DNA of 64,000 bases from Candidatus Woesearchaeota archaeon (GTDB taxonomy: Archaea; Nanobdellota; Nanobdellia; Woesearchaeales; UBA10216). Below the pieces are notes generated by a model. It ran no database searches, was not told the origin of the DNA, and worked only from the letters and a program-made list of their open reading frames with translations. Below, piece by piece: positions 20,719 to 60,044 of the stretch. The first letter of the stretch is position 1, and every line of letters begins with the position of its first letter. The stretch lies in assembly GCA_016184345.1 (NCBI GenBank), contig JACPCV010000005.1:4634-68633 (forward strand), read 5' to 3'. Position numbers and translations under genes: made by a program.

Positions 20719-20937
20719 TGGACTCGCCGGGACTCTCTCACTGGCGTTCGGGGCGCAAATCGCTGATGCGATTGTGCCCAGTCGGTTTTTCACCGACTTG
20801 GGTATTGTCCCTCCCGGGCGCCAATATTTGAACCCGGAGCCTCCACCTTTTAAGGACTTTTTGGTCGAGCTTTTTGGTGAGCTTGCGAACCAAAAAGGTC
20901 GTGCGAAGGTGGCGTCATGCGGTTAGACCACGAGCCC
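20719..20937 (-). tRNA. tRNA-Ala(CGC) with two introns: 53 nt at 37/38 (20849-20901) and 94 nt at 59/60 (20733-20826)
   Basis: GGGCTCG/CGAGTCC with G3:U70, TT-CGC-A, CCGGG-TTCAAA..T-CCCGG; mature length 72. Confidence 0.9.
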
Positions 20938-20980
20938 TTATGAAGAAAGCGACTTTGGAGACTTTAAAATACTTTTGACA

Positions 20981-55705: not shown

Positions 55706-58700
55706 ATGGCCGAGACCGAACTTAAGCTTAAAGTTGCCGAAGCCGTCCAGGATGACGTCAACAAGGGCATCGTAAGGATAGACACCACGCTAATGCATGA
55801 GATTGGCGTCAGGCCCGGCGACATAGTTGAGATAGAAGGAAGCAGGGTTACTGTCGGAATAGCAGACAGGGCATACCCTGGAGACATAGGCCTCAACATC
55901 ATAAGGATGGATGGGATCCTGAGAAGGAACGCCAGGTCAGGCATAGGCGAGCTGGTCAAGATCCGGAGGGCGGACATCAAGGGAGCCAAGAAGGCTGTAA
56001 TCGCGCCAGCCAGAAAGGGCGTAATGATAAGGGCAAGCTCCGACATATTCAAGCAGGGGCTTCTCGGAAGGGCGCTTGTCAAGGGCGACATCGTAGCTTT
56101 GGGGGGCACGACGAGGAGAAGGACAACCTTCGTGCACAGCCCGTTTGAGGAAATCTTCAAGATGCTTGACGAGGTTGACGAGGACGTAATGGGCCTCGGC
56201 TTCTCAGATATCAAGTTCATAGTCATTGACACGCTGCCAAAGGGCCCGGTCATAATAACAGACCTGACCGAGGTCGTGTTCAACCCTGAAGCTGCCGACA
56301 TGGTTGAAGAGCCAAGGCTGGACATAACCTATGAGGACATTGGCGGCCTGTCCGAAGAGATAAAAAAAGTCAGGGAAATGGTAGAGCTTCCGCTAAAGCA
56401 CCCCGAGATTTTTGAAAGGCTGGGCATTGACGCGCCTAAAGGAGTGCTGCTGCACGGGCCTCCGGGAACAGGAAAGACGCTTGTTGCAAGGGCTGTAGCG
56501 AATGAGACAAACGCGTACTTTACCCACATAAACGGCCCGGAGATAATGTGCGTAGATGGCAACACAATGGTTCTAACTAATCCTAAAGGTTTCGTTAAGG
56601 CTAAAGAAGTGTTTGAAAGTGTTAAGAAGAAAGGAAAAGTTACTAGGGAAGGCGGCCACGAAGTGATTGAGCTTACAGAACCGGTTAAGACTTACTCTTA
56701 CAAAGATGGCAAGATTAAGAAGTCCAAAATAACTCACATGGTTAAATTAAAGGCCCCGTCTTTTAACATTGCCTTCAGTGACGGTTCGGAGTTAATAGCA
56801 TCTGCCAACCAGCCGTTCCTAACTTATCGAACTGGTGAACTTGTTTGGAAGCGCATAGCCGACTTAAAAAGAGGGGATTTCGTAGCTAAGCTTAACAAAC
56901 TGCCTGTTAAAGGGAAAAGTTACAAAATAGATTGGAGAAAGTTAGGTCTTAAATTGAAGATTAAGAATGAAAAAGCAGCTATCGAAAGCAGAAACTTGTC
57001 CAGGAGTAACTTTGTGAAGCTTCCTAAGAAAACCAGCGTAGAACTTATGATGCTCGTTGGACTCATTTTCTCTGATGGGAATATTAGTAAAGACCACGAT
57101 GCCATTATATTTGCCAATAAGGATGAGAGATTAGTTAATTATTTCAAAAAGCTTGCAATTTCGATTTTTGATATTGATAAGAATATGCTTAAGGAATATC
57201 ACGCAGATAATGATACCCGGGTTGTATTGTATTCAAAAGTTTTGGCGAATTTATTTGAATACCTCGGAATACCTTCGGGAAATAAGTCAAAAGTTGAGCA
57301 GCACGTGCCGAGTTATGCTTACGCTTTGCCCAAATCAGAAGTGGCTGCTTTCGTGGCCGGATACTTCGAGGGTGATGGCACTGTTGCGCTAACTGAAGTC
57401 AAGAACGCCAAGCACACATTCAGTTATCCAACTCCTAAAATTTATTGTAAATCAAAAAACTTTTTGCACGAAATGCAGGCTTTAATCCAGTTAAGGCTTG
57501 AGATAAGCACGAAGCTGAATAAGCATCCAACCCCGTTGGGCGAAATGTTTGAACTTGTAGTCAGAGGGAATTCCGGCAGGCTTAAATTTGCAGAGCTGCC
57601 ATTGGTGACTAAAGATATCAGAAGTGGCCAGATACGCAAAACTTTGCGGATAAAAGAATTTGAGAACATACCGACGCCAAACGCACTGATTAGAGAAATG
57701 AAAGCCAAGTTACCTTATGATGCTTACAGGAATCACGACTATTACATTTACAATCAAGGGAAATTTACAAAGCACGCGCTGAATAACCTTTATAACATAG
57801 CGGCAAGAAGTGGCGTAATTAATGACCTTCTAAGAAAAGAGTTCGCAGTATTGACCCGGAATGATATTTCCTGGGAAACTATTGATGGAATTGCCGATTT
57901 AGGCGAGCGGGACCTTTACGACTTTACAGTCAATGACGACAGTTTCATCGGTCACTATTATTTACTGCATAATAGTAAATTTTATGGCCAGTCTGAACAA
58001 AACTTAAGGAAGAAGTTTGAAGAGGCAGAGAAGAATGCGCCTTCAATCATATTCATTGACGAGATCGACGCCATTGCCAGCAAAAGGGAAGAGCTGCACG
58101 GCGAGGTTGAGCGAAGGGTAGTCGCACAGCTGCTTGCATTAATGGATGGGCTGAAGGACCGAGGGAAAGTTGTCGTCATAGCAGCAACAAACGTTCCAAA
58201 CCTACTTGACCCTGCACTGAGAAGGCCTGGAAGGTTTGACAGGGAGATAGAGATTGGAGTTCCAACCAAGGAAGGCAGGCTTGACATACTAAAGATTCAC
58301 ACGAGGAACATGCCGCTGGGAAGGGAAGTAAGCAGGGGCACAGCCCTGCCTAAGAGCGAGGAGCTTTTGCCGCAAGGGAAAAAGTACGAGCTCTACTCCG
58401 AGAAAGACAAAGAGAAATTCCTCGTTGAGTTTGCAGCCAAGACGCACGGCTTTGTGGGGGCAGACATGGCAATGCTCTGCAAGGAAGCAGCCATGGTTGT
58501 GCTGAGGAGGGAGCTGCCCGGCCTCAAGTTTGACGAGGAAGAGCCAATCCCGAAAGAAGTGCTTGAGCGCATGGTCATCACGAAGCACGACTTTGCCGAG
58601 GCCCTGAAGGTCGTAAGGCCGTCAGCAATGAGGGAAGTCCTGGTTGAGATTCCGACCGTAAGGTGGAAAGACATCGGCGGCCTCGATGAAGTGAAGCAGC

Positions 58701-59500
58701 AGCTCAAGGAAGCCGTAGAATGGCCAATCAAAAACCCTGAAGCGTTCAAAAGGTTGGGTGTCAGGCCCCCCAAGGGCATACTGCTTTACGGAGCGCCAGG
58801 CACCGGCAAGACCCTGCTCGCAAAAGCAGTAGCAACAGAGTCAGAGGCAAACTTCATACTCGTAAAAGGACCGGAGCTGCTCTCAAAGTGGCTCGGCGAA
58901 TCAGAAAAAGCAGTGAGGGAAGTCTTCAAGAAGGCAAGGCAGACCTCGCCAACAATAATCTTCTTTGACGAGCTGGACTCGCTCACGCCAAAAAGAGGCA
59001 TGAGCAGCGACAGCCACGTGACAGAAAGGGTGGTCAACCAGCTGCTTACCGAGATAGACGGGCTTGAGGACCTGTACGACACAGTAATAATCGGCGCAAC
59101 CAACAGGCCGGACATGATAGACCCGGCACTGCTAAGGCCGGGAAGGTTTGACAGGCTCATACTCACGCTAGTTCCAGATGTAAAATCACGCCTGGAAATA
59201 TTCAAGGTGCATACCAAGAACATGCCGCTAAAGAACGTGAACCTTGAGAAGTTCGCGCAGATAACGGAGGGTTATGCAGGAGCGGACATTGAAGCGGTAT
59301 GCAGGGAAGCAGCAATACACGCCCTCAGGGAAGACATGGCATCAAAGACAGTGGAAGAAAGGCACTTCATGGAAGCGCTCAAGAAAGTCAGGGCTTCAGT
59401 GACAAAAGAGATAGAAAAAGCGTACGAGGAAGTGCGCGACAGCCTGAGCGTTGCAAGGGCCAAGGAAATCAAGGAAGAAAGGCCCATGTACATGGGATGA
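55706..59500 (+). CDS. cdc48: CDC48/VCP AAA+ ATPase, intein-containing
   Basis: N domain, [33 protein letters not shown]-terminal MYMG. Confidence 0.97.
56549..57973 (+). mobile_element. Intein (475 aa) with LAGLIDADG endonuclease in CDC48 D1
   Basis: NGPEIM|CVDGNT...LLHN|SKFYG; VGLIFSDG and AGYFEGDG. Confidence 0.93.
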
Positions 59501-59838
59501 TTCTGAGATGAATGTCGGCTGTTTTATTAATCTGCAGCCAATGCAAAAAAGTCAAGTGGCATGTTTCTTAAAAATAAGAAAAAGGCAGAAACTGGTACTG
59601 CCTTAAAGGTCCCGAAGCCTCATTACTTTTTGTATAAGTTGGCTTAGTATTTAACTTTTTCGATTTTCACGGCAAACGGCGCAAAAGATCCCCGTCGTTG
59701 CCGTAAAATATCCGGAAAAAGAAGCTAAAAGCGAAATATTTCTGGTATGCTCTGTAAACTTTCTGATGTTGCCGGAAGAATTACAATGATTTCGGGGCAA
59801 GGCATATGAAGAGTTCTTGATAGAAGTACGGCGGGGTT

Positions 59839-59994
59839 GCCGCGGGAGCAGGAGCTGGTACAATTCCGCGAGGCGGAATGTACAATCGGCCGCTGCCGAT
59901 TTGTAACTGCACCTGCCTGAAAAGCAGGGGAGGTCCGAAGCCTCATCCGGGTTCAAAACTCAGCATAAGCTGGGTGGAGGTCCCGGCCGCGGCG
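59839..59994 (+). tRNA. Atypical tRNA-like gene: anticodon GAA, long variable arm, G73, 45-nt D-loop insertion (59861-59905) and 23-nt BHB intron at 59/60 (59958-59980)
   Basis: GCCGCGG/CCGCGGC-G, D-stem GCAG/CTGC, CCTGC-CTGAAAA-GCAGG, GAGG/CCTC arm, BHB TTCA/TGGA; G8 and G14 non-canonical. Confidence 0.72.
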
Positions 59995-60044
59995 CCCCCT
60001 CTTTCTGGTTATGGCAGTAGCAACAAAAAGTTTTATATAACCCT

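Follow-up and report, generated by a model that had tools for sequence, protein, structure and literature searches.

The tRNA-Ser(CAG) of Candida is a natural anticodon variant, and the human tRNA-Ser variant G35A reads Phe codons. Closest in concept to the gene reported here are the allo-tRNAs of bacteria, which have a long variable arm, G73 and diverse non-Ser anticodons (including those of Leu, Ile and Phe), and some of which carry extra stems, are seemingly inactive in translation and are linked to mobile or toxin-antitoxin DNA (Mukai et al., 2017; PMC5389517). They are defined by an 8/4 or 9/3 acceptor/T-stem and by a long, tRNA-Sec-like D-stem with a tetraloop (PMC5389517). Other similar cases are the nev-tRNAs of nematodes, a lineage-specific and conserved set of class II tRNAs with anticodons other than those of Leu and Ser, such as Ile UAU (Hamashima et al., 2012, 2015; PMC3333845, PMC4300185), and the yeast tS-F(GAA) and tS-I(GAU), in which a Ser body has a foreign anticodon (PMC6125640). 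Here, we analyzed a 64,000-nt stretch (the window) of contig JACPCV010000005.1 from assembly GCA_016184345.1, the genome of a tiny groundwater archaeon, and characterized a gene at window positions 59839-59994 which, like allo-tRNAs (G73 or U73), combines a long variable arm and G73 with a non-Ser anticodon, GAA.

This gene is a genuine archaeal-type tRNA gene that contains a T-loop intron and a 45-nt D-loop insert. The reading we favour, and consider reasonably probable, is that it represents an accessory paralogue of tRNA-Ser that is transcribed and spliced, was recently hit by a mobile hairpin pair and is probably impaired. In the following, all coordinates between 598xx and 600xx are window positions; G000 denotes this genome (the window is part of its contig C6), G001 and so on other genomes, C a contig and L an extracted locus.

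Structure of the gene and its T-loop intron

The locus contains the following features:

59799..59810, plus strand: promoter-like block AAGGCATATGAA (putative function), which ends 29 nt upstream of G1
59833..59838, plus strand: 5' leader GGGGTT, whose GGGG (59833-36) is able to pair with CCCC (59996-99) of the trailer
59839..59860, plus strand: exon 1, with the 5' strand of the acceptor, G8 A9, the 5' strand of the D-stem and the D-loop up to U20 A20a (aligned with 15 homologues in alignment A1)
59861..59905, plus strand: D-loop insert of 45 nt, consisting of module M1 (59861-80), TA, module M2 (59883-903) and TA, with copies elsewhere in the genome
59906..59957, plus strand: exon 2, with A21, the 3' strand of the D-stem, A26, the anticodon arm, the variable arm, the 5' strand of the T-stem and T54-A59
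59958..59980, plus strand: T-loop intron of 23 nt at position 59/60, with a perfect hBHBh' motif found by the motif scan described below
59981..59994, plus strand: exon 3, with U60, the 3' strands of the T-stem and acceptor and the discriminator G73
59995..60006, plus strand: 3' trailer, CCCCC and then T-rich TCTTTCT (terminator-like), read from the sequence; CCA is not encoded

The exons form the fold of a class II (long-arm) tRNA. Its acceptor stem (GCCGCGG 59839-45 / CCGCGGC 59987-93) is followed by G73 at 59994, the D-stem (GCAG 59848-51 / CTGC 59907-10) has 4 bp and a loop that was 10 nt long before insertion, the anticodon stem is CCTGC 59912-16 / GCAGG 59924-28, and the T-stem (CCGGG 59947-51 / CCCGG 59982-86) closes the T-loop TTCAAAT once the insert is removed. 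The anticodon loop CTGAAAA is canonical (U33, A37 and A38) and has GAA at 59919-21. Positions 8 and 9 are G8 and A9 (59846-47), the core bases are G14 and A15 at 59852-53, G18 and G19 at 59857-58 and U48 at 59946, and the variable arm has 18 nt (59929-46). The initial annotation of this DNA had described a G73 long-arm body with a GAA anticodon, perfect acceptor, anticodon and T stems, G8 and G14, a retained A15-U48 pair and an 18-nt variable arm, all of which could be read directly at 59839-59994; the leader-trailer pairing that it proposed is also possible. Leaders of the form GGGGCT or GGGGCC with a (C/T)CCC trailer recur in the homologues L002, L003, L004, L005 and L007, L012 has the variant GGGACT/TCCC, and T-rich trailers of a similar kind are found downstream of other family members.

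Folded without constraints, the raw 170 nt adopted exactly this cloverleaf as the minimum-energy structure (z = -3.1). When the T-loop intron was removed, z reached -4.1 and 0 of 200 shuffles folded as well. The gene had been called hidden, and indeed neither ARAGORN nor Rfam made a call on the raw locus (for the RF00005 tRNA model, no match either at the gathering threshold or at E<=10), because the 45-nt and 23-nt inserts interrupt the tRNA. With both inserts excised, ARAGORN called a long-arm tRNA(gaa). Our covariance model R1, whose training set included the gene itself, scored it at 71 bits. An 8/5 or 8/4 acceptor of the tRNA-Sec or allo type, formed by pairing of base -1 with G73, was rejected, as position -1 is C, U or A and is not conserved. 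A shifted register with UGA at 33-35 as a Ser anticodon was rejected as well, because stems of 5 bp and loops of 7 nt are found without ambiguity and co-vary.

Bulge-helix-bulge (BHB) motifs were searched for over all cut-site pairs; the geometry required was two bulges of 3 nt separated by a helix of 4 bp, each strand being cut two bases beyond that helix. This rule was calibrated on the clear introns of this genome and may miss relaxed motifs. A single outstanding motif was detected, which defines the intron at 59958-59980 and agrees with the perfect BHB at 59/60 in the initial annotation. It is composed of a 4-bp central helix TTCA/TGGA, the bulges AAA and GGT (each cut after its second base), an inner helix of 6 bp and an outer helix of 5 bp, which is the T-stem. 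The T-loop insert is a regular BHB intron, which we take to be a textbook hBHBh' intron at a non-canonical position. Among the 62 non-Ser rows of the alignment, one of which is a true A73 tRNA-Leu, 46 had the 59/60 intron and only one had a 37/38 intron. The genome encodes one EndA of 197 aa (in the region C2:95903-96163), and EndAs with an L3 loop were reported to accompany heavily disrupted tRNA genes in DPANN archaea (PMC5829648). Elsewhere in G000, 96-nt introns are present in tRNA-Leu(GAG) (C2:133759-133941) and tRNA-Glu(CUC) (C4:5525-5697), both at 41/42 according to ARAGORN, and they have a common ~40-nt block, CGTTTTTGGATTGAACCTTTTGC(C)GTGCAAAAGGGTCA.

The gene is located between cdc48 and gatD, and the same arrangement is found for its orthologues L003 (G001:C106) and L004 (G005:C54). 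Their exons are ~90% identical to those of this gene, and the flanks are much less similar. The three loci compare as follows:

This genome: anticodon stem CCTGC/GCAGG, anticodon GAA, D-loop insert present
G001 (L003): anticodon stem CCAGT/ACTGG, anticodon AAG, D-loop insert absent
G005 (L004): anticodon stem CCTGT/ACAGG, anticodon GAA, D-loop insert absent

Relative to the orthologues, the anticodon stem shows compensatory changes, and so does the BHB inner helix, which co-varies among the syntenic copies.

The D-loop insert and its repeat family

The D-loop insert is composed of two hairpin modules, M1 (CAATTCCGC-GAG-GCGGAATG) and M2 (CAATCGGC-CGCT-GCCGATTTG), each followed by TA, and the insertion point is the TA of the original D-loop, between GAGCTGGTA and ACTGC. 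GTA repeats surrounding two hairpins without a BHB had been noticed previously, and we located them at 59858, 59880 and 59903 (spacing 22 and 23). No strict BHB that restores a normal D-loop was found for 59861-59905 in the scan of all cut-site pairs, and in a relaxed scan (one central mismatch allowed, D-loop kept) precise excision would have 0 inner pairs and no more than 2 outer ones. Wherever a 4-bp central helix was possible, it either exchanged the GTACAAT repeats or abolished the D-loop. Thus, both scans rejected the insert as one BHB intron or as two nested ones.

Both M1 and M2 possess the hallmarks of a repeat family, namely a CAAT...ATTTG hairpin base, one bulged base, a complementary clamp of 2-3 nt and many dispersed copies. 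In the 0.88-Mb genome, 65 module hits were detected, always with a short complementary clamp. Other M1+M2 pairs with ~90% identity are found at C5:187968-188016, C5:47041-83, C2:194463-505 and elsewhere, and among the 10 other genomes of the genus, 9 have copies of the repeat. Two modules of this genome-wide palindromic repeat, flanked by TA, make up the D-loop insert. The initial annotation had suggested insertion of an element with target duplication. The first part holds, as the insert is a repeat copy with TA on its flanks; as to the second, every module of the repeat has a self-complementary 2-nt clamp (cg..cg, tg..ca and cc..gg elsewhere), TA..TA is likewise such a clamp, and a TA duplication is indistinguishable from it.

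The twin that is flanked by TA and has CCGCT as its M2 loop variant is present at only three sites in the eleven genomes of the genus, which are this gene and two loci of G009 with a CAG anticodon (L012 on G009:C3 and L002 on G009:C6). All of them are the same D-loop site of accessory tRNAs that differ in other parts, and all three insert-bearing copies are otherwise intact. For at least two of the three, close insert-free relatives exist (L014 for L002, and L003 and L004 for this gene). The shared site in three paralogues, together with these insert-free relatives, suggests one origin and then spread among paralogues, and from such sequence comparison the pattern points to conversion, duplication or site-specific insertion as possible routes of that spread. 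Mobile-element models of tRNA disruption have been proposed (Sugahara et al., 2012; PMC3293823). We identified no transposase or recombinase for the modules, and no search for a mobilising enzyme was made.

Modules of this kind were also noticed in or beside other tRNA genes. In L004 (G005:C54), a twin hairpin of the same repeat family lies directly after G73-C74 and splits the CCCC trailer, implying that the same locus was hit independently at another site. A tRNA-Ala gene in the window (20720-20940, minus strand) has a T-loop intron of ~88 nt that holds two hairpin modules. An M2-like hairpin directly follows C1:2121-2216, a 5'-truncated relic of an accessory tRNA that lacks the 5' acceptor strand, has a 5-nt anticodon loop and keeps the 59/60 intron.

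A family of accessory Ser-type tRNAs

The initial annotation had raised the question of whether a separate normal Phe(GAA) and Ser(GGA) tRNA exist, and both were found. Every BHB was removed in silico and ARAGORN was re-run, by which a canonical class I tRNA-Phe(GAA) with A73 and G37 was detected at C2:192074-192176 (minus strand); it has a 28-nt BHB intron in its D-loop and is visible only after in-silico intron removal. The gene studied here was rejected as the cell's tRNA-Phe, given the presence of this canonical one. Archaeal tRNA-Phe identity comprises A73, a class I short loop, G20, C13-G22 and G34 A35 A36 (PMC9976931); only the anticodon of our gene fits, whereas its G73, 18-nt arm, G13-C22 and U20 do not. 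The genuine tRNA-Ser(GGA) was found with model R1 at C6:154191-154324, 85 kb beyond the window end, and has introns of 13 nt at 37/38 and 37 nt at 59/60. Its acceptor, GCCGGGA/TCCCGGC-G, is common to three accessory tRNAs. In relatives, the true Ser set of the genus (UGA, GGA, CGA and GCU) is nearly identical between species, and 11 of 12 sequences have the 37/38 intron.

The body of the gene is of the Ser type, as had been proposed. It has G73, G30-C40 (59915/59925), C11-G24, G1-C72 and a long arm with 1 unpaired nt on the 5' side and 2 nt on the 3' side, the same as in the true tRNA-Ser of the genus; a Ser anticodon (NGA or GCU) is replaced by GAA. G73 and G30-C40 are strong Ser determinants for both bacterial-type and archaeal SerRS, SerRS ignores the anticodon, and G73 is an antideterminant for the LeuRS of H. 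volcanii, archaeal Leu identity requiring A73 and specific bases of the arm loop (PMC9976931). There is one SerRS in the genome, encoded on C3 (L082:808-2121), which is of a bacterial-like type (serS equivalog). Judged by these sequence features, the gene is an accessory paralogue of tRNA-Ser and not the cell's tRNA-Phe. Since SerRS ignores the anticodon, Ser would be expected at Phe, Ile or Leu codons from a Ser body that carries GAA, GAU or CAG. We examined columns of Cdc48 with a conservation of 80% or more in a set of 45 distant homologues, in which CTT/CTC/CTG/CTA correspond to Leu, TTC/TTT to Phe, ATC/ATT to Ile and AGG to Arg. This tally rejected a reassignment of CUN, UUY or AUY codons, and the genetic code is standard.

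Altogether, 10 G73 long-arm tRNAs with non-Ser anticodons were identified in this genome:

GAU: C1:17254
AAG: C4:6932, C5:162147, C6:39042 (window 34409-34520) and C6:147511
GAA: C5:12279 (decaying) and this gene
CAG: C5:96512 and C2:199732
GAG: C3:4675

The set that had been suspected from this gene and the AAG tRNA is thus real and far larger, with about 60 further genes in eight relatives. The decaying copy (C5:12279-12388) has A8, a C3·U70 mismatch and a mismatch in its BHB. The GAG member (C3:4675-4774) has the loop TTGAGAT and a 13-nt arm, and its homologues L039, L048, L057 and L070 show that the anticodon is fixed in five genomes; it lies 9 nt from a PIN-domain gene, and a normal A73 tRNA-Leu(GAG) is also present.

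Model R1 gave 8-14 hits per genome in 7 of the 10 genus relatives and 3-4 in G002, G003 and G010; most other genera sampled had 0-5, except G012 (12) and G033 (7). Family size within the genus is 6-10 copies per genome. We fetched and aligned 74 R1 hits from eight relatives, of which about 60 are accessory genes, with the anticodons CAG (26), GAA (11), AAG (10), GAU (4), GAG (4), CCU (3), CUC (1) and CAA (1). Over 61 accessory genes, G73 is near-universal, C11-G24 and G1-C72 are invariant (61/61 each) and G30-C40 occurs in 55; over 60, U33 is found in 59, A37 in 53 and A35 in 56, and U34 was never observed. Position 8 may be U, A or G, indicating a relaxed U8-A14 core pair. G8 and G14 of our gene are not a sign of decay; they characterize its entire sub-clade, to which the insert-free copies L003, L005, L013 and L014 also belong.

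Homologues with compensatory stem changes are present in 9 related genomes. Counting stem positions sequence by pair, 96.6% were paired in alignment A1 (compensatory changes in 15 of 24 pairs) and 97.3% in alignment A2 (20 of 24 pairs), A1 having been spliced by hand and A2 fitted to our model, which favours the structure. The pairing in each was far above shuffled and slid controls. In a maximum-likelihood tree of the tRNAs, based on 89 columns of short sequences and with many forks open, at least 27 anticodon changes were required, and the true Ser UGA/GGA/CGA tRNAs were sister to the clade of our gene with moderate support (94/87). Two deviating groups, GAG with a short arm and CAG with G37, are conserved with a fixed anticodon and are placed nearer to Leu and Ser(GCU).

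G73 long-arm tRNAs were also found in G012 (same family, other genus) and G033 (other family, same order). Their anticodons are UAU, GAU, GAA, CAG, CAA, AAG, AAC and GAG, all of the form N-A-N, and no explanation tested accounts for this A35/N-A-N rule. As to more distant origins, a phage or virus source was rejected: the only hits were to SSV and an Aeropyrum virus, in a generic T-arm/acceptor stretch that presumably derives from tRNA-based attachment sites. A comparison of the intron-less members with bacterial tRNA-Leu by blastn against E. coli genomes gave nothing, a search that is insensitive for 84 nt against 28 Gb. In the literature searched, which was limited in coverage, we found no description of an archaeal family of this kind.

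Four of the 10 accessory tRNAs have the block AAGGCATATGAA (at most 2 mismatches) 25-29 nt upstream, and variants of it are found at other members. It is conserved in this gene and both syntenic orthologues while their flanks diverge. Canonical tRNAs in this genome have TTTATAAA-type boxes instead. The form AAGGCATNTGAA occurs at -25 to -29 at window 59799-59810 and upstream of C5:12279, C5:96623, C6:39153 and others. In addition, accessory tRNAs often have the palindrome TTTCCGGAAA at about -46, for which 188 hits with at most 1 mismatch exist genome-wide. No dedicated partner gene or second SerRS was found among the family neighbours or in the genome, the neighbours being housekeeping genes; as the genome is ~85% complete, absent genes prove little. 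With regard to the neighbourhood of our gene, the upstream cdc48 (window 55706-59500) contains an intein with a LAGLIDADG domain, and close relatives have intein-free versions (789 aa). After the cdc48 stop, window 59612-59623 lies in a small hairpin followed by a T-run and shares a 12-nt identity, CCGAAGCCTCAT, with the variable arm (59935-59946), which is probably due to chance (E about 0.6).

Possible roles and comparison with known systems

Transcription of the gene could start from the family-specific upstream block and would yield a short leader, GGGGUU, paired with the CCCC of the trailer. The single EndA would then remove the T-loop intron, and SerRS could charge the body according to published identity rules. 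The 45-nt hairpin pair would stay in the RNA, beside positions 20a/21, and in the predicted fold G19 is paired inside hairpin 1, by its clamp. G19 normally pairs with C56, and positions 20a/21 set the orientation of the long arm. With G19 sequestered and an insert next to 20a/21, this copy is probably impaired or silenced as a decoder and would be a poor substrate. In its overall behaviour, the family resembles a dispensable set of deviant class II tRNAs under birth-and-death turnover, which is kept as structured and processed RNA and is not used to redefine the genetic code. Strong structural selection, a relaxed position 8, fast anticodon turnover and decaying copies all fit such a dispensable accessory set.

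Several observations weigh against an impaired member of a dispensable family. This insert-bearing copy shows no decay, with perfect stems, a perfect BHB and an intact promoter-like block, and two other intact family members in G009 keep the same insert, as might be expected too if the insert were tolerated or removed. The T-loop intron of the tRNA-Ala (window ~20720-20940, minus strand) seems to be spliced in spite of an imperfect central helix with an A·A mismatch, and the endonuclease may therefore accept more motifs than our scan allows. Moreover, the near-invariance of A35 across genera shows selection on the anticodon, which argues against a functionally idle family. The lack of decay in the three insert-bearing copies and the conservation of A35 across genera also speak for a working mistranslating tRNA, whose insert is removed by a relaxed endonuclease or tolerated, and which is serylated and puts Ser at UUC/UUU as one of a regulated set that creates a statistical proteome. 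The intact Ser identity set, the canonical anticodon loop and the promoter-like block common to the family suit this explanation too, and allo-tRNAs have been shown to insert Ser at sense codons in E. coli (PMC5389517). However, yeast tRNA-Ser with a GAA or GAU anticodon is lethal once accumulated (PMC6125640), which makes a natural multi-copy family surprising; ~10 genes reading abundant codons (CUG, CUU and UUY) would be a heavy load, the encoded proteins show the standard code, and the insert has no BHB around it and sequesters G19 in the predicted fold. We consider it unlikely. A bolder version, which we regard as distinctly unlikely, is that in Woesearchaeota-like DPANN archaea ~10 co-regulated Ser-accepting N-A-N tRNAs deliberately and conditionally put Ser or another amino acid at hydrophobic codons, with the hairpin pair retained in the mature RNA of this copy as a gating or tuning arm; if true, archaea would have a natural system for programmed mistranslation that includes a six-armed tRNA.

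Another possibility is that the family is processed and perhaps charged but acts off the ribosome, as an amino-acid donor, a regulator or a decoy for toxins that cut tRNA (these genomes have many PIN/VapC nucleases), the anticodon loop being free to vary within limits set by a partner. This agrees with structural co-variation alongside at least 27 anticodon switches, with the variable position 8 and with A37 in most NAG (Leu anticodon) members, compared with G37 in the canonical tRNA-Leu of this genome. One member lies next to a PIN-domain gene; nev-tRNAs mature normally with no detectable mistranslation (PMC4300185), and many allo-tRNA(UAU) are translation-inactive and near toxin-antitoxin loci (PMC5389517). 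On the other hand, the search among neighbours gave no common neighbour gene, second synthetase or partner, only housekeeping genes, and the N-A-N restriction resembles a decoding constraint, so we see this role as an unlikely one. That restriction would be accounted for if the LeuRS of the lineage accepted G73 long-arm tRNAs. Most members would then be extra tRNA-Leu (Leu anticodons are present in 41 of ~60 accessory genes, and nearly all others read hydrophobic NUN codons), and those with GAA, GAU, UAU or AAC would put Leu conservatively at Phe, Ile or Val codons. The nev-tRNAs, class II with odd anticodons, offer a parallel, as they are leucylated in vitro (PMC4300185), but G73 blocks H. 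volcanii LeuRS and archaeal Leu identity depends on A73 and arm-loop bases (PMC9976931). The true tRNA-Leu genes of this genome differ from the accessory tRNAs in having A73 and UUAGU in the arm loop, true Ser is sister to the clade of our gene, and CCU and CUC members exist, all of which makes charging with Leu improbable. It is also conceivable that the gene is dead, a pseudogene among neutral duplicates of tRNA-Ser, neither copy nor family having a function. The decaying and truncated copies, the variation of copy number and anticodon between species and the repeat inserted in the D-loop are in line with this; however, compensatory changes in all helices and in the BHB inner helix, the conservation of G73, G30-C40, U33, A35 and A37, the conserved upstream block and the lack of any mismatch in this copy make it highly improbable.

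The favoured reading of the gene, as an accessory tRNA-Ser paralogue hit by a hairpin pair, has several implications. It seems that throughout an order of tiny archaea several genes of this type are maintained per genome, and that selection acts on their stems, intron motif and upstream block. Either these RNAs act off the ribosome, or they are charged against identity rules, or mistranslation is tolerated or exploited, each of which bears on tRNA identity and on the drift of the genetic code. The same hairpin pair in the same D-loop site of three paralogues, with insert-free orthologues at its own locus, is a dated case of selfish DNA in a tRNA exon without a splicing motif. In practical terms, a large share of the tRNA genes of such genomes escapes standard tRNA finders.

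With respect to its insertions, the gene may be compared with two groups of known elements. One group is that of archaeal tRNA genes with multiple, non-canonical BHB introns (reviewed in PMC4090602, PMC4033280), to which the 59/60 intron, the one EndA and the many interrupted tRNAs of this genome are similar; the D-loop insert differs in having no defining BHB. The modules resemble REP, MITE and Rickettsia palindromic element repeats in being short palindromes with dozens of copies, stacked in tandem and located in or beside tRNA genes. However, their stems co-vary rather than being identical copies, and this variant occurs only in D-loops of one tRNA family.

As to the tRNA body, the architecture of allo-tRNAs is not shared: our gene has a 7/5 arrangement, a 4-bp D-stem and, before insertion, a normal D-loop, and it is archaeal, has a BHB intron and belongs to a family restricted to N-A-N. 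The nev-tRNAs are eukaryotic and leucylated in vitro, whereas the present family has G73 and more anticodon types, and this copy two insertions. Finally, the tRNA-Ser variants of yeast, Candida and human are single genes that are toxic or reassign codons, whereas here there are ~10 genes per genome and the proteins show no sign of reassignment.

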